This document shows positions 48,933 to 55,558 of a DNA stretch of 64,000 nt, piece by piece. The notes below the pieces were generated by a model, which was not told the origin of the DNA, searched no databases, and saw nothing but the letters and a program-made list of their open reading frames with translations. The stretch is from Escherichia phage dune. Numbering within the stretch: the stretch's first letter is position 1; the number at the start of each line of letters is the position of its first letter. A program made the translations under genes and the position numbers. The stretch is taken from the sequence record MN850636.1; one strand, written 5' to 3'.

Positions 48933-49062
48933 TATGTTTTCTCCAAATAATTAACCATGTTTCTCCTTAAAAAAGACGGCACAGAGACCGTCAAGGAGAA
49001 ACCACAATGTACGTCAGAGACATACTGTATAAGCCTTCTTATAAAGTATAACTCTGTAAAAA

Positions 49063-49125
49063 AGCCCTGTCTAAAAATACTCTTCGGTAGCGAAAGGAAG
49101 AATACTTATAGCAGGGCATTATTAT
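49063..49125 (-). terminator. Candidate terminator of tRNA operon
   Basis: GCCCTG/CAGGGC outer stem enclosing TCTTC/GAAGA inner stem, followed by U6 on minus strand. Confidence 0.4.
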
Positions 49126-49154: not shown

Positions 49155-49230
49155 TGGAGAATCCGAAGGGACTCGAACCCTTATAAACCTGTTTTGCAGA
49201 CAGGCACATATCCATTTCTGTCACGGATTC
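49155..49230 (-). tRNA. tRNA-Cys (anticodon GCA)
   Basis: Hand-folded cloverleaf: 7-bp acceptor, T-arm aaggg-TTCGAGT-ccctt, anticodon loop cuGCAaa, CCA encoded. Confidence 0.75.
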
Positions 49231-49234
49231 AAAT

Positions 49235-49327
49235 TGGAGGAAGATACCAGACTTGAACTGGTACACCGATTTCTCAGCTACTGGCAGTTTAGCAAACTGC
49301 TCCCTTACCTTTTAGGGTTAATCTTCC
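49235..49327 (-). tRNA. tRNA-Ser (anticodon GCT), long variable arm
   Basis: 93 nt, 7-bp acceptor, anticodon loop uuGCUaa. Confidence 0.7.
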
Positions 49328-49328
49328 A

Positions 49329-50063
49329 TTATTTCTGTAATGCGCTCTTCATTTCTGGTGTTGCAATAGTGTCAATCACACCAGTTTTACAAGCATCGTC
49401 AAACCAGTCTGGTAAGATACCTGCTAAGAACCCATTGATATTCGTTTTAAGGTACTCTGCAATAAGGGCAGCTTCTTCTTCAATCATCTGCACAACTTCA
49501 TCTGCATAAGCTGTAATCTTTGAAATACCTTCATTAATCTTACTGACAGCTTGGTTAGCTAAATCAGAAACAGTATCAAGACCCTTATCAATAGCATCTT
49601 GTAAGTCACTTAACACACCATTAACACTATCTAGTGTACTGTTCATCATGTCAATAGCTTTTTGACCATACTCTGTAGCAACACCCATGATACCACTGAA
49701 TGGTGTACAACCAACTTGTTCTCCTGCTGCACCCATAACATTGGAATACCCCTTTGCTACCTGCATACGTGATGAAAACTCATCAATAGATTTTTGACCG
49801 TAGTCTGTCAGAGTTTTAGTAGTTGCTGTAGTGCTTGTAAGGCTTGTTGTAAAGCTGTTTAGAAGGACTGTTGTAAGTCCAGCAGCAACAAGTTTCTCCT
49901 TCATTGTAGGGTCTGTTACAGAACTAATAGAGCTTACAAGTGATGTAGAAGCAGCTACGGTTCCACCGAGAACTGCTGCACCAGTAATAAGCGGGTTAGA
50001 GAACCCTTTACCAGTTTTTAAGAGATTAAAAATCTCCTTACCTTGTTCTGTCATCTCTTTCAT
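49329..50063 (-). CDS. Hypothetical protein (~244 aa) embedded in tRNA array
   Basis: ORF track; ATG 50063 after AAAGGTG RBS avoids overlap with tRNA-Phe. Confidence 0.5.
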   Translation of the reverse strand: MKEMTEQGKEIFNLLKTGKGFSNPLITGAAVLGGTVAASTSLVSSISSVTDPTMKEKLVAAGLTTVLLNSFTTSLTSTTATTKTLTDYGQKSIDEFSSRMQVAKGYSNVMGAAGEQVGCTPFSGIMGVATEYGQKAIDMMNSTLDSVNGVLSDLQDAIDKGLDTVSDLANQAVSKINEGISKITAYADEVVQMIEEEAALIAEYLKTNINGFLAGILPDWFDDACKTGVIDTIATPEMKSALQK

Positions 50064-50079
50064 TAAGCACCTTTGAAAT

Positions 50080-50156
50080 TGGTAGCCCAGTGGGATTTGA
50101 ACCCTCTTCTCATGTTTTTCAGACACGCGCTTTAACCATATAAGCTACTTGGACTA
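50080..50156 (-). tRNA. tRNA-Phe (anticodon GAA)
   Basis: Anticodon loop cuGAAaa; acceptor with one G-U. Confidence 0.6.
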
Positions 50157-50161
50157 TAAAT

Positions 50162-50237
50162 TGGGGTGACCTACGGGAGTCGAACCCGTATAGACCATGT
50201 TCACAGCATGGGTCATTACCATTTATGATAAGGCCAC
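50162..50237 (-). tRNA. tRNA-His (anticodon GTG)
   Basis: Anticodon loop cuGUGaa; perfect anticodon stem. Confidence 0.7.
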
Positions 50238-50267
50238 ATTTAAGGACTCTCGTAAGAACCCTTAGAA

Positions 50268-50344
50268 GTGGCAGCGGCATAAGGATTTGAACCTTAATCG
50301 GACAGCTTCAGAGACTGTTGCATTGCCAGTTATGCTATACCGCT
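50268..50344 (-). tRNA. tRNA-Gln (anticodon CTG)
   Basis: Anticodon loop cuCUGaa. Confidence 0.65.
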
Positions 50345-50349
50345 AAATT

Positions 50350-50429
50350 TGGTACTCCATATCGGATTCGAACCGATACATAACACAGATTTTAAGTCTG
50401 GCCTCTCTGCCAATTGGAGTAATGGAGCA
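50350..50429 (-). tRNA. tRNA with Leu anticodon TAA, short (~7 nt) variable loop
   Basis: Acceptor and T-arm good; anticodon loop cuUAAaa with 4-bp stem; 80 nt. Confidence 0.5.
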
Positions 50430-50430
50430 T

Positions 50431-50506
50431 TGGCGGGGGATGTTGGAATTGAACCAACTTCTTCGATTTCAAAGACCGAGGTTTTAACCTTGTAAACTAA
50501 TCCCCT
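50431..50506 (-). tRNA. tRNA-Gln (anticodon TTG)
   Basis: Anticodon loop cuUUGaa; D-stem guuu/aaac. Confidence 0.7.
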
Positions 50507-50514
50507 TTAAATCT

Positions 50515-51072
50515 TTACTTTCTCAGTGGATGAATAAAGAATGCCAACATAACTCTTTCCCTTGAGAATGCTCTTTCTTCTGGGACAACACTTTTAAGTT
50601 TCCATCCAACATAAATTCTCCAGTAAAACTGTTTACCAAAGACTTTAATTGACGGAATAAAAGCGAATAATCCCCAAGCATTGTTGTTCCACATTAGGAG
50701 ATAACCTGTCTGATTATCTTCAGGGTCAGAACTTACGTTGATATTACCTTTCCACTTAGTAACATCTTTTACATCTCTTCCTAATACATGGTAAGAGAAG
50801 TTATAAGCTTTGTTTCTCCAGAGCCATCCGACTCTCTGCATGTAGACACCCAGCTTACCAATCTTTCTAATCTTAGCCCATCTTTTAACGTGGCCTTCAT
50901 CACCATCAATTGGGTTGTCATAGGTCTCCATCCATCTGAATCCAAAAGGTAGATGTCCTTTCTTCTCACTGTAGAATGGAACTACGAAAGGTGCTAAGAT
51001 GACTGCTAGGGTTGCTGCAAATGGTTCTAGTAAAGCTAAGAAAATCCATGAAGCGTACTTCAAATATCTCAT
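50515..51072 (-). CDS. Hypothetical membrane protein (185 aa) embedded in tRNA array
   Basis: ORF track; N-terminal hydrophobic helix; flanked by tRNAs. Confidence 0.5.
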   Translation of the reverse strand: MRYLKYASWIFLALLEPFAATLAVILAPFVVPFYSEKKGHLPFGFRWMETYDNPIDGDEGHVKRWAKIRKIGKLGVYMQRVGWLWRNKAYNFSYHVLGRDVKDVTKWKGNINVSSDPEDNQTGYLLMWNNNAWGLFAFIPSIKVFGKQFYWRIYVGWKLKSVVPEERAFSRERVMLAFFIHPLRK

Positions 51073-51081
51073 TAAATAGCC

Positions 51082-51159
51082 TCTTTAAATTGGTGTTCCA
51101 AGACGGATTCGAACCGTCACTAATACAAGGTTTGAGCTTGCATCCTCTGCCAATTGGGA
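51082..51159 (-). tRNA. tRNA with Leu anticodon CAA, short variable loop
   Basis: Perfect acceptor, T-arm gacgg-TTCGAAT-ccgtc, anticodon loop cuCAAac, A73; 78 nt. Confidence 0.55.
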
Positions 51160-51161
51160 TA

Positions 51162-51235
51162 CTGGAACATGGTACTCACTAAAGGACTTGAACCTTTTTC
51201 TTCATCTTGTAAGGGTGGTGTTTTACCATATAAAC
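51162..51235 (-). tRNA. tRNA, probably Val (anticodon TAC); weak anticodon stem
   Basis: Acceptor, D- and T-arms fold; loop cuUACaa. Confidence 0.45.
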
Positions 51236-51244
51236 TAAGCGAGT

Positions 51245-51300
51245 GTGAAAGAGGTCTGAAGTTGTGCCGCTAACTCAACTCCGTGGAATTTGTTACGGTC
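51245..51300 (-). repeat. Member of GGTCTTC-motif structured repeat family (CTGAAG...CTTCAG stem)
   Basis: Shares ACGGTCTTCAG 3' motif with 53148-53812 copies. Confidence 0.4.
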
Positions 51301-51339
51301 TTCAGTTGACACCAGCGGTCTTTCACTTGACCTCTGAAT

Positions 51340-51415
51340 TGGTGCTCCCACAAGGATTCGAACCCTGATAAGTTGCTTACAAGGCAACCGTAATAGCCAA
51401 TTATACGATAGGAGC
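51340..51415 (-). tRNA. tRNA-Thr (anticodon TGT)
   Basis: Anticodon loop cuUGUaa, perfect anticodon stem. Confidence 0.7.
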
Positions 51416-51422
51416 ATTAATT

Positions 51423-51497
51423 TGGAGCATCCAGAGGGAATCGAACCCTCAACCTCAGTTTGGAAGACTGTAATTTTCCCGTTTAAACTATGGATGC
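51423..51497 (-). tRNA. tRNA-Gly (anticodon TCC)
   Basis: Anticodon loop cuUCCaa; perfect acceptor and T-arm. Confidence 0.7.
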
Positions 51498-51503
51498 ACT
51501 AAT

Positions 51504-51578
51504 TGGTGGAGTCACTGAGAATTGAACTCAGTTCCCAAGTTTGCAAAACTCGAATTTTAACCATATAAACTATGACCC
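51504..51578 (-). tRNA. tRNA-Ala (anticodon TGC)
   Basis: Anticodon loop uuUGCaa; G3:U70 pair in acceptor stem (alanine identity element). Confidence 0.8.
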
Positions 51579-51584
51579 CATTTT

Positions 51585-51660
51585 TGGTACAGGTGGAGGG
51601 AATTGAACCCATCGTCTTACTGATTAAGAGTCAGCCGCATAACCATTTTGCTACACCTGC
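51585..51660 (-). tRNA. tRNA-Lys (anticodon CTT)
   Basis: Anticodon loop cuCUUaa; paralog of 52809-52884. Confidence 0.6.
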
Positions 51661-51667
51661 ATTAATT

Positions 51668-51745
51668 TGGTAGGAGACAAGGGATTCGAACCCTCAAACA
51701 CCAACTTCTAAGGATGGTAGGTTTACCAATTACCGTCAATCTCCC
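51668..51745 (-). tRNA. tRNA with Leu anticodon TAG, short variable loop
   Basis: Anticodon loop cuUAGaa; acceptor 7 bp incl. 2 G-U; A73. Confidence 0.5.
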
Positions 51746-52001
51746 ATTAAATCTTTTTAGAGAACTTCTAAGAACCTGAGCAACAAGGTTCCACAACAAG
51801 CGACTAATAACCTTAGAAGCCCTCTAAAAAGACCTAAATAGGTCTTTGCATAGTCTTGTTTAATCCGGTGACTAGAACCTTTGGAGAGCTTGATATTATC
51901 TCTTCTCCGTGACACCTACTAGGTGCTTTGACAGTGTACGACAATACACGAGGGATAAACCGACAATGCGAACAAGCATGGACGGAGTAAATCTTATTAG
52001 G

Positions 52002-52089
52002 CGGTAAGTAAAGGAGTCGAACCCTCACCGTATCTCTACAGTGGCAACAGTTTTCAAGACTGTTTGGCTGCCATTAGCCGCTACCTACC
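52002..52089 (-). tRNA. tRNA-Ser (anticodon TGA), long variable arm
   Basis: 88 nt; perfect anticodon stem acagu/acugu, loop cuUGAaa. Confidence 0.7.
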
Positions 52090-52102
52090 CCTAATAAGAC
52101 TT

Positions 52103-52185
52103 TGGCATGGGACGGAGGAGTTGAACCCCTTTGAAACGGTTTTGGAGGCCGTTGCTCATGCCTTAGAGTCTTAACATCGTCCCAT
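52103..52185 (-). tRNA. tRNA-like, possibly Trp (anticodon CCA), enlarged D region
   Basis: Perfect 7-bp acceptor, T-arm, loop cuCCAaa; atypical 83 nt. Confidence 0.45.
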
Positions 52186-52327
52186 ATTATAATTCGAAGC
52201 TTACCCTGTTATCTCAACACTGTCAAGCTTCTTCTCAGATTATTTACATGTTCTGGAAAACATGAGATACAGACCACCTCCCTACAGGAAGACCCGCTAA
52301 GGCCGTCTAAGTAATCTGCTAACTATT

Positions 52328-52403
52328 TGGTACACCCTACAGGATTCGAACCTGTAACTAACGATTTAGAAGACCGTTGCTCTATCCAATTGAACTAAGG
52401 GTG
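52328..52403 (-). tRNA. tRNA-Arg (anticodon TCT)
   Basis: Anticodon loop cuUCUaa; perfect T-arm. Confidence 0.7.
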
Positions 52404-52650
52404 CATTATCTTTAAAGACTCTCTTAGAAAGCCCTTAAAGATGCCCACCTTATTAATCATACCGTGGGCGAGTACGCCAAATTCTTTGATGAGGGATTGG
52501 AAGACCTCACTGGTGTTTAGCCTATCAAGCTACTGCCAGAAAAACATTGTCGTTTGCATTTATTTTAAATTTGCAAAATAGACGCTACGCAACGAAAACT
52601 AAGGTTACTATAAAGTAGTCACATCTCAATGTCAACAACTTTATTGAAAT

Positions 52651-52726
52651 TGGTACTGGTAGGTGGAATCGAACCACCGATGTTCCCTTATCAGGGGAGT
52701 GTTATAACCTTCTTAACTATACCAGC
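52651..52726 (-). tRNA. tRNA-Ile (anticodon GAT)
   Basis: Anticodon loop cuGAUaa. Confidence 0.65.
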
Positions 52727-52727
52727 T

Positions 52728-52804
52728 TGGAGGTTCAGATGGGAATCGAACCCACATTCATAGGGCTTATGAGACCCTTGCATTACCTTATCTGCGACTG
52801 AACC
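52728..52804 (-). tRNA. tRNA-Met (anticodon CAT)
   Basis: Anticodon loop cuCAUaa; perfect acceptor. Confidence 0.65.
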
Positions 52805-52808
52805 ATAT

Positions 52809-52884
52809 TGGTAGAAGTGGAGGGATTCGAACCCATCGCCTGTCAGATTAAAAGTCTGCCGCATCACCATTCTGCTACACTTCC
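52809..52884 (-). tRNA. tRNA-Lys (anticodon TTT)
   Basis: Anticodon loop cuUUUaa. Confidence 0.6.
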
Positions 52885-52892
52885 ATTAAATT

Positions 52893-53020
52893 ATCTTTGT
52901 AGATAAGCTACCCAGACTTGCTTAAGGTCTGTAGCGATGTGCCTTTTTTGGGTTTAAATCTAGAATTTACCCATTCACCCTTTGTGGTCGCATACTCACA
53001 AGTAAGCTTAATAACTTATC
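52893..53020. repeat. Structured tRNA-free element bounded by perfect 13-bp inverted repeat CTTTGTAGATAAG / CTTATCTACAAAG
   Basis: Inverted repeat at 52895-52907 and 53006-53018 enclosing CAGAC/GTCTG hairpin. Confidence 0.5.
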
Positions 53021-53085
53021 TACAAAGGTAATTACCAGACCGTTGTTTATCATCTTAAGTGCTACCATTACACCAACTCGACATC

Positions 53086-53160
53086 TGCCGAGTGAAGGAA
53101 TCGAACCTTCGCCTTTTCTTTACCAGAGAAATAGATTGTTTAAGTTTTGCTGTAAACGGC
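53086..53160 (-). pseudogene. Degenerate tRNA-like gene (Thr-like, anticodon GGT) with weak acceptor stem
   Basis: Perfect T-arm (gaagg-TTCGATT-ccttc) and anticodon arm (uuucu-cuGGUaa-agaaa) but only 5/7 acceptor pairs and poor D-arm. Confidence 0.4.
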
Positions 53161-53169
53161 CTTCTGTAA

Positions 53170-53250
53170 ATTTGTTGAGCCAGACCAAGTTTTAAATTTT
53201 CAAAATTAAATTGGCTTGAAAATATCATACGTTCTTGCTGAATTTGGTCT
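53170..53250 (-). ncRNA. Structured repeat element copy 1 (AGACCAA...TTGGTCT stem; conserved TTGCTGAAtttGGTCTTCTG)
   Basis: 7-bp terminal stem; shared 30-nt motif with copies at 53584 and 53738. Confidence 0.45.
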
Positions 53251-53321
53251 TCTGCTCCTTTAAAGAATACTCGTAAGAACTCTTTAAGGGAGGGGCTAAA
53301 TAGCCCTCTCAAAATTGGCGG

Positions 53322-53398
53322 CTACGATGAGACTTGAACTCACATCATCTCCCGTGACAGGGGAGTATTTTCTCCAGTTAAACTACATAGCCTTTATT
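53322..53398 (-). tRNA. tRNA-Asp (anticodon GTC)
   Basis: Perfect anticodon stem cuccc/gggag, loop cuGUCac. Confidence 0.7.
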
Positions 53399-53403
53399 GG
53401 TGT

Positions 53404-53491
53404 GCCGTGTAGGAGTCGAACCTACCGAGTCTCAATGACAAGGGATTTACAGTCCCCACCGCTACCATCTACGGGATAACGACACATTTAA
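53404..53491 (-). tRNA. tRNA-Tyr (anticodon GTA), long variable arm
   Basis: 88 nt; loop cuGUAaa; perfect T-arm. Confidence 0.65.
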
Positions 53492-53499
53492 TTTGGCGG

Positions 53500-53576
53500 T
53501 TAGTCAGGGATTCGAACCCTGTGCCATTCGCTTAACAGGCGACCGCACATACCTTATGTGCTTCCTAACCTTAATA
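53500..53576 (-). tRNA. tRNA-Asn (anticodon GTT)
   Basis: Anticodon loop cuGUUaa; perfect T-arm caggg/ccctg. Confidence 0.65.
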
Positions 53577-53583
53577 CATTGCC

Positions 53584-53646
53584 AGACCGTGTTTTTTCTT
53601 TTATCCGCAAAAAAGTATTTTGTTGCTGAATACGGTCTTCTGCAAA
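53584..53646 (-). ncRNA. Structured repeat element copy 2 (AGACCGT...ACGGTCT stem)
   Basis: Stem carries compensatory AA/TT -> GT/AC change relative to copies 1 and 3. Confidence 0.45.
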
Positions 53647-53648
53647 AT

Positions 53649-53725
53649 TGGAGGCGGGTGCAGGAGTCGAACCTGCCGATACCATGCTAATGAGACATGT
53701 GAGACGCCCTTTCTCTATACCCGCA
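53649..53725 (-). tRNA. tRNA with anticodon CAT (second Met-type; initiator or Ile2 possible)
   Basis: Loop cuCAUua; U1:C72 mismatch at top of acceptor stem. Confidence 0.55.
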
Positions 53726-53737
53726 ATTCTTAATGAC

Positions 53738-53812
53738 CAGACCAAATCTCTTCTTTGTCCGATTTACCTTCAGATGAATAAGATTAAGTTTGCTGTAATT
53801 GGTCTTCTGTCA
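53738..53812 (-). ncRNA. Structured repeat element copy 3 (AGACCAA...TTGGTCT stem)
   Basis: 7-bp terminal stem, conserved TTGCTGTAATTGGTCTTCTG. Confidence 0.45.
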
Positions 53813-53819
53813 AAACTGG

Positions 53820-53897
53820 CGTTCCAGAAGGGATTTGAACCCTCAGATATCCACTTTGAAAGAGTGGTGACTATACCATTTTGTCTACTGGAACATT
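53820..53897 (-). tRNA. tRNA-Glu (anticodon TTC)
   Basis: Perfect acceptor and anticodon stem ccacu/agugg, loop cuUUCaa. Confidence 0.7.
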
Positions 53898-53904
53898 AAT
53901 TTGG

Positions 53905-53981
53905 TCTCTGTTGGAGGACTTGAACCTCCGGCCTTACCGCCCCAAACGGAACGCTCTACCAAGCTGAGCTAAACAGAGATA
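53905..53981 (-). tRNA. tRNA-Pro (anticodon TGG)
   Basis: Perfect acceptor, canonical D-arm GCUCAGCUUGGUAGAGC, loop uuUGGgg. Confidence 0.75.
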
Positions 53982-54142
53982 AACTTTTCAAACTCTATGT
54001 AACCACTTTAACATTATTTTTTAGTGGTTGTCAAGAACTTTTTTAAAATATTTTTCAGTATCTTAGAAAAGCTCTCATTTCGTTTCTATGTAGAACATAT
54101 TAAAGGGTATTAAACACATTGTCAATACCCTTTTAAAACTTT

Positions 54143-55558
54143 TTACCAGATGTAACGGTCAATCATTACTGCTTTGAGCATTACACTGATTGGGTCAAAC
54201 TTCTCACCACCAAGCAGAGCTTTTAAAGTAGCTGGAGAGAAACCTGATACCATTGCTACACCGTTATCCTTAACAGATACTTCGCAAGTACCATTACGGT
54301 TTGCTAAGTACCAGAATACCAGTTGTGGCATCTTATATCCAGCTTTTTTGTACTTACTACGAATTTCTTCAAAGTTTGTACGACCGTTAGCTCCATCAAC
54401 CTGATTGAACTCCATATCGGAGAAGATGATAAGCTTACTTGGCATATCTTTCTGAGTCAAGTTGTTTCTTTTACCTGTTTCAAGAATGCGGTCAAAAGCT
54501 GCTTGTAAGTTAGTTGAGCCATATTCAACGTGTCGCATCACCTGACGATGACGGTTTCGTAAATCACCGCTCAGTTCGATGAAGTGAGGGTTTGTTGAAT
54601 AAACCATTAACTCATTCTTAAAGCAACCTGTATTGCGTTCTGCTACATACAAGGCAAGTGATACACCAATATCCAGAGCAGTAATGGAGCCAAAATTCAC
54701 CCAAGACATTGAACTTGATACATCAGACATACACAAGATGTTTTCACCTTCTGCCATCCAGTTTGGTAGTGCTTTCCACTGCTCATTAGCAACATCTGCA
54801 TTACCATACTTGACAGATTTAATCACATCGTATGGGTAAACAGCACCAGCGTTAATCTTAGTCTCACCTTTTGATAAGGACTCGATGTAAGCTTTGTAAC
54901 GCTCTCCATCTTTACGGTTAAACAGTTTTTGGTAACGTGCAGCAGCAAGTGAAGGAATCTTACTGTAGTCAATCTTACCAAACTCATTAGCAGAGATTTT
55001 TTGCTCAACTGTATCAGATAGTGCAGACAACAGTGTGCGGTACTCTTTCTCACTCAAGTTGGCAAACTTGCAGAAACGTTTTACAAACTGCTTATGACGT
55101 GGTTTGACTCGTGGTAACCACTTAGCCGCCAAACCTGCTGTTGCAGGGTCTAGTAATGCTGCTTCTAAATGTTTGAAGGCATCTGTCTCGAAACGAGTAC
55201 CTACGAAGATTTTGAAGTCATCAAAACGACCAAGTTCTGCAATCTTATCCATAATGCGAAGAACCTGCATAGACTCTAAAACTTTGTCTTCAATCGCTTG
55301 AAGCAAAACAGTTCTGAAGGCTTTACGCTCACCCATACCTTCTCGTACATCTCGCATATGCAGTAAAATACGAACTGCAACATCAACATCCTCACGCAAA
55401 GCTTTGTAGAACAGGTCTGGTAAGATTTCTACATTGCTACGGCTTGAACCAGCAGCTTTGTAAAAGTCCACAAGAGCAGACATTGATGAAGTATGGTTTA
55501 CAGCACCATTTTCAGTTCGACCTGCATGAAGGTGCGCATGTTTAAATAATTCGCTCAT
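54143..55558 (-). CDS. vWA-domain protein with MIDAS motif (alpha-helical N-domain + C-terminal vWA); TROVE/Ro60-like architecture possible
   Basis: 471 aa; DxSxS MIDAS in CMSDVSSSMSW, downstream LIIFSDMEF beta-strand/Asp; heads the tRNA operon on the same strand. Confidence 0.65.
   Translation of the reverse strand: MSELFKHAHLHAGRTENGAVNHTSSMSALVDFYKAAGSSRSNVEILPDLFYKALREDVDVAVRILLHMRDVREGMGERKAFRTVLLQAIEDKVLESMQVLRIMDKIAELGRFDDFKIFVGTRFETDAFKHLEAALLDPATAGLAAKWLPRVKPRHKQFVKRFCKFANLSEKEYRTLLSALSDTVEQKISANEFGKIDYSKIPSLAAARYQKLFNRKDGERYKAYIESLSKGETKINAGAVYPYDVIKSVKYGNADVANEQWKALPNWMAEGENILCMSDVSSSMSWVNFGSITALDIGVSLALYVAERNTGCFKNELMVYSTNPHFIELSGDLRNRHRQVMRHVEYGSTNLQAAFDRILETGKRNNLTQKDMPSKLIIFSDMEFNQVDGANGRTNFEEIRSKYKKAGYKMPQLVFWYLANRNGTCEVSVKDNGVAMVSGFSPATLKALLGGEKFDPISVMLKAVMIDRYIW

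Follow-up and report, generated by a model that had tools for sequence, protein, structure and literature searches.

The minus strand of the 64,000-nt stretch of Escherichia phage dune analysed here (sequence record MN850636.1; the whole stretch is referred to as the window) contains an array of 26 tRNA genes, with at least one gene for each of the 20 amino acids. We consider it highly probable that this operon raises the decoding capacity available to the phage, has an additional insurance role, and embeds structured cassettes resembling Y RNA genes. A more far-reaching proposal, to which we lend slightly less than even weight, is that the operon houses a phage Ro60/Y RNA system (four co-transcribed cassettes, one of them permuted with the topology of YrlA) as well as a functional tRNA-Trp that has gone unannotated in more than 200 phages. 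The array as such is not new: the phage family is a known one, tRNA arrays of the Felix O1 type have been in the literature since 2010, and the window is 98% identical to a deposited genome. Judged from their sequences, the non-canonical tRNA-Trp, a selected mismatch at position 1:72 of one tRNA with a CAU anticodon, and the four Y RNA-like cassettes appear to go beyond the searchable literature, and all of them need wet-lab confirmation.

By sequence relationship, the window belongs to a Felixounavirus and its array is the tRNA operon of Felix O1-like phages. Database sequence comparison of the 5.2 kb around the array returned 98.3% identity to Escherichia phage fjerdesal and matches in 365 phage records, of which 242 span 80% or more of the region; almost all come from Felix O1-like (Ounavirinae, mostly Felixounavirus) phages of Escherichia, Salmonella, Shigella, Citrobacter, and Erwinia. 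At the same locus, fjerdesal has 26 annotated tRNAs flanked by a 'vWFA protein' gene and a terminase gene, and gene order and neighbours are common to fjerdesal, Moogle, Sf13, and Mordin. Across the full 64 kb, ARAGORN called 25 tRNA genes, all of them within 49155-53978 on the minus strand and none outside this interval, and folded every one of them as a cloverleaf. The Rfam model RF00005 recovered 23 tRNAs at or above its gathering score (31-64 bits); tRNA-Tyr (53398-53485) and one CAU tRNA (53649-53725), both folded as cloverleaves by ARAGORN, fell below threshold. A 3' CCA is encoded in 24 of the 25 ARAGORN genes, or in 25 of 26 once tRNA-Trp is counted. These calls reproduce, with identical isotypes and anticodons, 25 of the 26 minus-strand candidates that a first-pass annotation had folded by hand, and the remaining one, tRNA-Trp, is supported by covariation and completes the claimed representation of all 20 amino acids. 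The two protein open reading frames (ORFs) said to interrupt the array are real as well, and encode members of DUF7217 and DUF7338. The 4827 nt of the array comprise 2039 nt of tRNA, 1296 nt of ORF, and 357 nt of cassettes; what separates the genes is not empty spacer, as it holds promoters, hairpins, and the four structured cassettes.

The Felix O1 genome paper described a tRNA cluster with 22 tRNAs predicted by tRNAscan-SE, in which Tyr was called 'pseudo' and Met was low-scoring, and reached a codon-usage explanation for 7 tRNAs (Whichard et al. 2010; PMC3185647). A re-annotation of 23 genomes reports 17-23 tRNAs per genome (PMC8300805). The window shares locus and order with these Ounavirinae arrays (Pro, Glu, Met, Asn, Tyr, Asp, Lys, and so forth) as well as 96-98% DNA identity with many records, and the low-scoring Met and 'pseudo' Tyr of Felix O1 correspond to its two Rfam misses. 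The count is what differs, with 17-23 tRNAs published from tRNAscan-SE versus 26 supported here; the published numbers are lower because tRNA-Trp was never called and low scorers were often dropped, and standard tRNA finders thus under-count Felix O1-type arrays systematically. Big arrays covering most amino acids and interleaved with ORFs are also present in T5-like phages (e.g. OSYSP, MF402939) and in the T4 operon, but these phages belong to other families and their arrays follow another gene order. Two small stable RNAs of unknown function are co-transcribed with the tRNAs of T4, some of which lack an encoded CCA end.

The role of the array is best approached through codon usage, which we compared between long ORFs, 64 of them (17,022 codons) from the window and 64 from two 50-kb segments of the E. 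coli K-12 genome. The GC content at third codon positions is 0.32 in the phage versus 0.59 in the host. Every four- and six-codon family has a phage tRNA with U34, and the A-ending codon matched by Watson-Crick pairing is enriched 2-20× over E. coli (AGA 19.9×, CTA 4.1×, ACA 3.7×, CCA 3.1×, TTA 2.6×, TCA 2.4×, GCA 2.2×, GTA 2.1×, GGA 1.9×); AAG (1.9×) and CAA (1.6×) are enriched as well. Over all codons, those with a Watson-Crick phage tRNA have a mean log2 ratio of +0.55 versus -0.47 for the rest (one-sided Mann-Whitney p = 0.025). We envisage that host RNA polymerase would transcribe the array as polycistronic precursors from sigma-70-like promoters, that host RNase P and 3' nucleases would process these precursors, in line with the CCA encoded by nearly all genes, and that host aminoacyl-tRNA synthetases would charge the products. 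Most likely, the main role of the resulting tRNAs is to provide more decoding capacity for AT-rich phage genes, with U34 tRNAs serving A-ending codons, while a second, compatible role would be insurance if host tRNAs are missing, degraded, or cleaved.

This capacity has limits, and the array is 'one tRNA per amino acid' rather than a complete private decoding system. Under strict wobble rules, the 26 tRNAs read 42 of the 61 sense codons, corresponding to 74% of phage codon usage; if reading of U-ending codons as by uridine-5-oxyacetic acid (cmo5U) is allowed, these numbers rise to 48 codons and 89.5%. Between 10 and 26% of phage codon usage therefore stays unread, including GGT (4.7% of phage codons and the commonest Gly codon), all CGN codons, ATA, and most NNC codons of four-codon boxes. 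The earlier proposal that a near-complete private tRNA set implies substantial independence from host tRNA pools holds insofar as all 20 amino acids are covered; with only 74-90% of codon usage read, 'substantial' is overstated and independence would be partial. Near 51072-51091, beside tRNA-Leu(CAA), the window lacks an extra tRNA-Arg found in fjerdesal (segment 3594-3668), Moogle, Sf13 (where its anticodon is ACG), and Mordin, which leaves the window phage without a tRNA for any CGN codon, though CGT makes up 35% of its Arg codons.

Several observations weigh against decoding capacity as a full account of the set. The G34 tRNAs of two-codon boxes are not accompanied by a codon bias (ratios 0.66-0.99), which means that codon supply can account for only part of the set, and no phage tRNA pairs by Watson-Crick rules with GGT, GCT, GTT, or ACT, which are the most used codons. 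The host baseline consists of only the 64 K-12 ORFs. Several members depart from what host enzymes would be expected to accept (tRNA-His without G-1, tRNA-Trp with a 7-nt insertion, tRNA-Leu without a long arm, U73 in both CAU tRNAs, and tRNA-Ser(UGA) without A76), and their activity cannot be assumed. Finally, the tRNAs of Bas63 were mostly non-essential on four laboratory hosts and were described by the authors as a conditionally useful toolbox (PMC11482910).

A serious competitor, which we place just short of an even chance, is that the array serves mainly counter-defence or insurance and that codon matching is secondary. The phage tRNAs would then replace host tRNAs that are cut by anticodon nucleases (PrrC, PARIS, retron-associated, or colicin-like) or lost with degradation of the host genome. 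Such a role would account for the coverage of all 20 amino acids, including Asp, Glu, Phe, His, Tyr, Asn, Cys, Trp, and Met, for which codon usage offers no rationale. It is also consistent with the anticodon regions: 11 of the 13 phage tRNAs compared have a 7-nt anticodon loop unlike that of every same-anticodon E. coli tRNA fetched, and the anticodon stems of tRNA-Leu(UAG) and tRNA-Trp, together with positions 32/38 of the Trp loop, vary fast among close relatives, although loop differences may be plain divergence. Phage tRNAs have been reported to evade anticodon nucleases, according to work cited in two of the papers used here (PMC11482910, PMC13596443). Eight Felixounavirus isolates (REP5-12) infect Syn61Δ3, which is devoid of serT and serU, through expression of their viral tRNA-Ser(UGA), that is, a viral tRNA rescues infection of a host without the cognate tRNAs, and in one REP isolate, evolution under selection triplicated a segment of the tRNA operon (PMC12269064, PMC13596443). 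In addition, the Ro60-like gene adjacent to the array is an anti-defence gene in Bas63 (PMC11482910). The specific match between U34 tRNAs and A-ending codons, however, is not predicted by insurance alone, and the two models are compatible. In our reading, supply of A-ending codons is the best-supported role of the array and insurance a compatible second one.

The second component of the operon is a family of four structured cassettes located between the tRNA genes (Table 1). All are built from an outer helix of 3-4 bp and a 7-bp helix of the form AGRCCNN/NNGGUCU, separated by an asymmetric internal loop (AGA on the 5' side, G on the 3' side) and followed by the motif WUWCAGCAA and a variable interior. 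A structure-aware scan of the 64 kb returned exactly four cassettes, all within the array, versus about 0.3 per shuffled window. When 20 paralogous and orthologous copies are considered, the helices are 99.5% paired versus 21-45% in slid controls, compensatory changes affect 5 of 11 pairs, and no copy deviates in the internal loop AGA/G, the AGACC/GGUCU core, or CAGCAA. The cassettes of a Yersinia phage have a rewritten helix 2 (GGACUGU/ACAGUCC, GGAUUC/GAAUCC, GGACUC/GAGUCC) and retain CAGCAA. Cassettes are unannotated in most records, and REP7 labels cassette 4 a 131-nt tRNA-Thr. In the segment of OSYSP, neither a Ro60-like gene nor CAGAAGACC-type cassettes turned up, in a comparison that included no search aimed at them. 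The four cassettes are tRNA-derived or tRNA-related and most likely give rise to small non-coding RNAs that would be co-transcribed with the tRNAs.

Cassette 4 is a circularly permuted tRNA, that is, a tRNA mimic and not a decoder. Its interior combines a hairpin whose loop is of the anticodon type with a T arm (GAAGGUUCGAUUCCUUC), an acceptor-like stem of 7 bp capped by four nucleotides, and a D arm. When the sequence is re-permuted, ARAGORN calls a clean tRNA-Thr(GGU), whereas it calls no gene in the native order; Rfam finds a partial tRNA match at 53093-53143 (26.8 bits). Pairing reaches 96.9% in the alignment of cassette 4, and the acceptor-like stem changes in a compensatory manner, with three unrelated self-complementary versions among relatives (ACUCGGC/GUCGAGU, ACACG/CGUGU, and ACCCUUC/GAAGGGU); the T and D arms are invariant. 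The anticodon-like hairpin is only 83% paired, and its loop reads CUGGUAA or CCGGUAA in some relatives, has 6 nt or other sequences in others, or is absent; on account of this lack of conservation, a functional permuted tRNA-Thr was rejected. Circularly permuted tRNA genes are known from Cyanidioschyzon merolae, and as in that type the 3' part (27-73) of cassette 4 is located upstream of its 5' part (1-26). Unlike them, cassette 4 has no CCA or processing motif and its loop is variable, making decoding unlikely.

A candidate protein partner is encoded directly upstream of the array, at 54143-55558. The AlphaFold (AF2) model of its product, built from 38 homologs with a predicted local distance difference test (pLDDT) score of 89.9, predicts a Ro60 fold, i.e., a HEAT-repeat ring and a von Willebrand factor A (vWA) domain with a metal ion-dependent adhesion site (MIDAS), whose DxSxS residues D279, S281, and S283 are invariant. 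In a Foldseek search against the PDB, each of the 12 best matches was a Ro60/TROVE protein, from frog, human, Deinococcus (Rsr), or Thermus phage phiLo, at probability 1.00 and with template-modelling (TM) scores of 0.47-0.65 over the full length. Only the fold search matched Ro60: Pfam assigns DUF2828 and DUF7788 and not TROVE, and a phmmer search against PDB sequences gave no match. A literature search for DUF2828 turned up nothing relevant. In Bas63, gp130 is located directly upstream of the tRNA stretch, is Ro60-like, and counters Ppl, and the authors speculated that some of the annotated Bas63 tRNAs might be Y RNAs (PhageMaP preprint, PMC11482910). Given the same genomic position in a Felixounavirus and the Ro60 resemblance, found independently for the window gene, gp130 and the 54143-55558 gene are presumably orthologs. 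While the Bas63 proposal concerned annotated tRNAs, the candidates here are mostly unannotated cassettes and the 26 tRNAs look like genuine decoders. Our best guess, by analogy, is that the cassettes yield Y RNA-like partners of the adjacent Ro60-like protein, which would turn the published speculation about gp130 into specific, testable Y RNA candidates.

The closest known counterparts are YrlA Y RNAs, whose V stem-loop is variable, whose T and D arms are near-invariant, and whose AS stem is conserved in pairing only (Chen et al. 2014, PMC4201824). They are encoded less than 4 kb from the Ro60 gene, several Y RNAs may occur per genome with one of them tRNA-like, and a Deinococcus precursor co-transcribes Yrn2, tRNA-Asp, and Yrn1 (PMC4201824). 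Cassette 4 has the same layout, with an end-formed stem enclosing V stem-loop, T arm, acceptor-like stem, and D arm, and the same conservation pattern; of this layout, cassettes 1-3 have the end stem alone, like YrlB-type RNAs. All four are positioned 332-1110 nt downstream of the stop codon of the Ro60-like gene, well within the distance typical of YrlA. They differ from the YrlA setting in being embedded inside a tRNA operon and in having a DUF2828/DUF7788 rather than a Pfam TROVE protein as their neighbour. Three findings count against a Y RNA identity: the Ro60-binding motif GNCGAAN0-1G is absent from the cassettes, the nearest sequence being GGUCUGG on the 3' strand (GGUCCGA-like); the Rfam YrlA model RF02553 matches no cassette up to an E value of 10; and in the KVP40-like jumbo Vibrio phage phi-pp2, a strict regular-expression and structure scan found no cassette beside the Ro60-like gene, so the link between gene and cassettes is seen only within Ounavirinae-like phages. 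An Rfam YrlA match of 19.6 bits over the Phe and His tRNAs was set aside as noise. In phi-pp2 (JN849462), the Ro60-like homolog has 45% identity and lies about 3.4 kb from a tRNA array, and the association of Ro60-like genes with tRNA arrays may thus extend beyond Ounavirinae.

The same absence of GNCGAAN0-1G and of an Rfam YrlA match (PMC4201824), together with the empty scan of phi-pp2, would fit a different explanation, namely that instead of Y RNA-like partners the cassettes represent tRNA genes in decay or elements of tRNA origin that punctuate processing of the polycistronic precursor by RNase P or RNase E. Helix 2 would then be a 7-bp acceptor-like minihelix with the 3' G as its discriminator, and about 7 bp followed by one unpaired purine do resemble an acceptor with its discriminator; moreover, cassette 4 is plainly tRNA-derived and was called a 131-nt tRNA-Thr by an annotation pipeline. 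We regard this explanation as possible and somewhat doubtful. Decay leaves unexplained the invariant AGA/G, AGACC/GGUCU, and CAGCAA elements with their covarying flanks, and the cassette family is kept, with helix 2 rewritten, in a Yersinia phage whose Ro60-like protein is 53% identical. The conservation pattern of cassette 4 is that of YrlA (PMC4201824), and the cassettes are found 0.3-1 kb from a gene with a predicted Ro60 fold, all of which weighs against this explanation.

The 26th tRNA gene, at 52103-52185, escapes standard detection: ARAGORN makes no call, RF00005 gives no match, and the sole match came from the tRNA-Sec model (23 bits). The element is conserved in 235 phage records, and in the 40 entries listed it is annotated as 'none', as 'hypothetical protein', or not at all, including in genomes annotated with tRNAscan-SE. 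From GenBank relatives and IMG/VR contigs we obtained 12 distinct variants, anchored on an invariant 15-mer outside the helices, and aligned 10 of them. In the cloverleaf, 99.5% of cells are paired and 8 of 19 pairs change on both sides, versus 31-51% pairing and zero compensatory pairs in slid-partner controls, and none of 500 shuffles attained the observed pairing or covariation. Compensatory changes affect the acceptor stem (A1-U72/U2-A71 to G-C/C-G), the D stem (CUC/GAG to CAC/GUG), the anticodon stem (AACGG/CCGUU to GUAAG/CUUAC), and the T stem (G-C to U-A). An alternative D stem, UGUU/AGCA, was ruled out, as the covarying pair favours CUC/GAG. The CCA anticodon in its 7-nt loop, U33, A37, G73, and the 3' CCA are invariant among Felixounavirus, Mooglevirus, and Pectobacterium and Yersinia phages. 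In E. coli, tryptophanyl-tRNA synthetase identifies its tRNA chiefly by the anticodon and G73.

What sets this element apart from a canonical tRNA is the connector between acceptor and D stem, an invariant 9-nt sequence (GAUGUUAAG) where the usual tRNA has 2 nt, which is why standard tRNA models fail on it; the identical connector is also present in a Yersinia phage. We read 52103-52185 as a genuine tRNA-Trp gene of unusual shape, whose product would be charged by the host synthetase. Its absence from every annotation entry listed would mean that published statements of a lacking isotype are annotation artefacts. A non-decoding identity is unlikely, whether as a tRNA-like decoy or regulatory RNA or as a pseudogene that the 7-nt insertion has inactivated. 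Rejection by ARAGORN and RF00005, the long connector, the mismatches C31·A39 and A49·C65, and the lack of UGG enrichment in the phage (12.7 vs 14.9 per 1000) could be taken in this sense, but a pseudogene would lose the compensatory changes seen in all four helices, the decoding features are invariant across the phage groups named above, and this is the sole Trp tRNA of an otherwise complete set.

Two further tRNAs share the anticodon CAU, and their Met, fMet, and Ile2 identities were told apart by hand, with metY, metT, and ileX of E. coli K-12 for comparison. The gene at 52728-52804 has G1-C72 and U4-A69, as does metT (elongator Met). For the other, at 53649-53725, the first-pass annotation had noted a U1:C72 mismatch, which is present in the ARAGORN fold, and had proposed an initiator or a specialised isoacceptor. 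Its acceptor pairs 2:71-6:67 (G-C, C-G, G-C, G-C, G-C) are identical to those of E. coli tRNA-fMet (metY), and among relatives base 1 is U, C, or A, always faces C72, and is never paired; retention of the mismatch while base 1 drifts argues that the mismatch itself is under selection. A selected 1:72 mismatch is a hallmark of bacterial initiators, and this mismatch together with G2-C71, C3-G70, and G4-C69, all of which the gene has, reportedly forms the determinants for formylation, a finding attributed to Lee, Seong and RajBhandary in 1991. Other initiator features are missing. Instead of three G-C pairs (29-31 with 39-41), the anticodon stem is CAUGU/GCAUG with only G30-C40 (two of three in the Arno18 counterpart), and in place of A73 and a CUCAUAA loop there are U73 and a CUCAUUA loop with U37, both conserved in relatives. 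The proposal is thus borne out by the acceptor stem and the selected mismatch, and not by the anticodon stem, U73, and U37; from its sequence we call the tRNA initiator-like and no more than a putative initiator.

That this tRNA is instead tRNA-Ile2 (lysidine-modified and reading AUA) or a second elongator tRNA-Met is improbable: the missing G-C triple and U73 would agree with it, and many phages, e.g. T4, do have a CAU tRNA reading AUA, but ATA accounts for only 5% of Ile codons in the phage (2.6 per 1000, about the host level), the acceptor has G4-C69 and G5-C68 versus C4-G69 and C5-G68 in E. coli ileX, pairs 2:71-6:67 equal those of tRNA-fMet, and a 1:72 mismatch that persists through changes of base 1 (U, C, or A) would not be expected of an elongator. 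Ile2 identity was rejected as unlikely for both CAU tRNAs, the second of which has U4-A69 and C5-G68; C4-G69 and C5-G68 are said to be the ileX-like determinants, as credited to Ikeuchi and co-workers in 2005.

The three tRNA-Leu genes depart from the class II rule of a long variable arm. They measure 78-79 nt including CCA, with variable loops of 5-7 nt, compared to 85-87 nt for E. coli leuW, leuT, leuU, leuZ, and leuX. Similarly short versions occur in relatives down to Pectobacterium and Yersinia phages (77-79 nt, with compensatory anticodon-stem changes), and in phi-pp2 and OSYSP (77 nt); tRNA-Leu(UAG) of OSYSP is identical to that of the window at 64 of 78 positions (82%). Elements expected by leucyl-tRNA synthetase (LeuRS) are in place: A73 is present in all three and a U precedes each T stem, and the D loops of the UAA and CAA genes read AAUUGGCAGA on a 3-bp stem (Leu-type), that of the UAG gene UAAUUGGUAA. 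Leu identity in E. coli reportedly rests on A73, a Leu-type D loop (AAUUGGNAGA, 3-bp stem), and possibly A15:U48, as attributed to Asahara and co-workers in 1993, and the long variable arm is said to be dispensable for E. coli LeuRS, as ascribed to Larkin and co-workers in 2002. An anticodon-swapped tRNA-Leu from OSYSP (MF402939.1) reportedly translates TCG as leucine in E. coli (PMC13596443), which makes it most probable that host LeuRS charges short Leu tRNAs of phages. A literature search for phage Leu tRNAs without a long variable arm turned up no relevant paper. The Leu(UAG) slot (window 51668-51745) holds two unrelated alleles among Felixounaviruses, a 78-nt type beginning GGGAGAU and a 77-nt type beginning GCACCUA, the former with multiple compensatory anticodon-stem differences among close relatives.

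In tRNA-His, position -1 (50238) is T and not G, and C73 is kept. In E. coli, G-1 is the main identity element for histidyl-tRNA synthetase. All Ounavirinae relatives have T or A at this position, and OSYSP has T and thus, like the window, no G at -1; a G was seen in E. coli hisR and one unrelated phage contig. The 3' end of tRNA-Ser(UGA) is GCC followed by U, so A76 is not encoded, as in nearly all relatives, and its maturation would depend on 3' trimming and on the CCA-adding enzyme of the host; a Felixounavirus tRNA-Ser(UGA) is functional in Syn61Δ3 (PMC12269064, PMC13596443). Together, the rule-breaking members (tRNA-Leu without a long arm, tRNA-His without G-1, tRNA-Trp with its connector, and the initiator-like tRNA without its G-C pairs) offer natural test cases of tRNA identity, and they bear on the 'firewalls' of recoded genomes, which Felix O1-type phages breach with their own tRNAs.

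Table 1. Features of the tRNA array and its surroundings in window coordinates.
Feature	Position	Strand	Source or remark
Ro60-like gene, 471 aa, DUF2828 + DUF7788, PHROG 850 'RNA-binding protein'	54143..55558	-	directly upstream of array
Two sigma-70-like promoters, TTGACA-17-TAATAT and TTGACA-18-TAAAGT (sites 54125, 54034)	54005..54125	-	consensus match, between Ro60-like gene and tRNA-Pro
tRNA-Pro(UGG), CCA encoded	53902..53978	-	ARAGORN; Rfam 57.7 bits
tRNA-Glu(UUC)	53817..53894	-	ARAGORN; Rfam 56.8 bits
Cassette 1: helix 1 GAC/GUC, loop AGA/G, helix 2 AGACCAA/UUGGUCU, UUACAGCAA motif, variable interior	53735..53811	-	structure scan, covariation
CAU tRNA, U1·C72, initiator-type acceptor	53649..53725	-	ARAGORN; sub-threshold Rfam
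Cassette 2: helix 1 UGC/GCA, loop AGA/G, helix 2 AGACCGU/ACGGUCU, AUUCAGCAA motif	53580..53644	-	scan, covariation; fold z -3.1
tRNA-Asn(GUU)	53494..53570	-	ARAGORN; Rfam 48 bits
tRNA-Tyr(GUA), long variable arm	53398..53485	-	ARAGORN; sub-threshold RF00005
tRNA-Asp(GUC)	53316..53392	-	ARAGORN; Rfam 60.6 bits
Cassette 3: helix 1 AGC/GCU, loop AGA/G, helix 2 AGACCAA/UUGGUCU, AUUCAGCAA motif	53178..53256	-	scan, covariation; fold z -2.3
Cassette 4: same bounding helices; variable hairpin, T arm, acceptor-like stem-loop, D arm	53033..53168	-	fold, covariation
Long hairpin, 22-nt arms, 101-nt structured interior, between cassette 4 and Lys(UUU)	52889..53033	-	-44.3 kcal/mol, z -5.3
tRNA-Lys(UUU)	52809..52884	-	ARAGORN; Rfam 54.4 bits
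CAU tRNA, elongator-Met-like	52728..52804	-	ARAGORN; Rfam 55.6 bits
tRNA-Ile(GAU)	52651..52726	-	ARAGORN; Rfam 62.3 bits
Internal sigma-70-like promoter TTGACA-17-TATAGT, 11/12	52607..52635	-	consensus match, upstream of tRNA-Arg(UCU)
tRNA-Arg(UCU)	52328..52404	-	ARAGORN; Rfam 64.1 bits
tRNA-Trp(CCA), non-canonical (predicted)	52103..52185	-	covariation; no ARAGORN/RF00005 call
tRNA-Ser(UGA)	52000..52089	-	ARAGORN; Rfam 31.1 bits
Near-perfect long hairpin, 26-nt arms, between Ser(UGA) and Leu(UAG)	51747..51837	-	-37.6 kcal/mol, z -7.2
tRNA-Leu(UAG), 78 nt, short variable loop	51668..51745	-	ARAGORN; Rfam 40 bits
tRNA-Lys(CUU)	51585..51660	-	ARAGORN; Rfam 56.9 bits
tRNA-Ala(UGC)	51504..51579	-	ARAGORN; Rfam 56.9 bits
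tRNA-Gly(UCC)	51423..51497	-	ARAGORN; Rfam 59.6 bits
tRNA-Thr(UGU)	51340..51415	-	ARAGORN; Rfam 58.4 bits
tRNA-Val(UAC)	51170..51244	-	ARAGORN; Rfam 55.8 bits
tRNA-Leu(CAA), 78 nt, short variable loop	51091..51168	-	ARAGORN; Rfam 44 bits
185-aa ORF within array, Pfam DUF7338 / PHROG 2143	50515..51072	-	Pfam, PHROGs
tRNA-Gln(UUG)	50431..50506	-	ARAGORN; Rfam 56.6 bits
tRNA-Leu(UAA), 79 nt, 7-nt variable loop, D loop AAUUGGCAGA, A73	50350..50428	-	ARAGORN; Rfam 47.5 bits
tRNA-Gln(CUG)	50269..50344	-	ARAGORN; Rfam 59.8 bits
tRNA-His(GUG), T at -1	50162..50237	-	ARAGORN; Rfam 51.4 bits
tRNA-Phe(GAA)	50080..50155	-	ARAGORN; Rfam 41.1 bits
245-aa ORF within array (ATG at 50066), Pfam DUF7217 / PHROG 2114	49329..50066	-	Pfam, PHROGs
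tRNA-Ser(GCU)	49235..49327	-	ARAGORN; Rfam 46.2 bits
tRNA-Cys(GCA), last array gene	49155..49230	-	ARAGORN; Rfam 56 bits
Terminator-like long hairpin GCCCUG...CAGGGC then UUUUUU, after tRNA-Cys	49058..49117	-	read from sequence

Among the remaining elements of the array, the two long hairpins at 51747-51837 and 52889-53033 may serve as processing sites for RNase III or represent additional small RNAs. A shorter hairpin of about 9 bp recurs in three copies near tRNA ends on the minus strand (50239-50263, 52411-52435, and 53260-53284), two of them with a UACG loop (AAGGGUUCU-UACG-AGAGUCCUU type), while the copy at 52411-52435 is divergent. The strongest promoter-like site falls into the 246-nt gap between tRNA-Ile(GAU) and tRNA-Arg(UCU) (52405-52650, minus strand). 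Matches to tmRNA and permuted-tmRNA models at 52405-52709 (15.7 and 29.2 bits) are far below threshold and were discarded as probable noise.

Annotation of tRNAs within the Felix O1-like family is inconsistent from record to record. In the slot after Tyr, which is occupied by tRNA-Asp in the window, REP records have an 86-nt feature labelled 'tRNA-Thr CGT' (REP12) or 'tRNA-OTHER' (REP7), and a 'tRNA-OTHER' of REP12 occupies the slot of tRNA-Arg(TCT) in REP7. Felix O1-type array sequence, at 94-97% identity, is also found in GU169904 (labelled Staphylococcus phage SA1) and in a Campylobacter phage, which suggests mislabelled or chimeric entries. Finally, Yersinia phage vB_YenM_P778 contains a 691-nt gap in its tRNA array (segment 8970-9660) with isolated T-arm motifs, in which an apparent tRNA 5' half (GCGGGUG...) lies about 100 nt from a matching 3' half (...CACCUGC); to judge from these letters, the two halves could belong to an interrupted or split tRNA.

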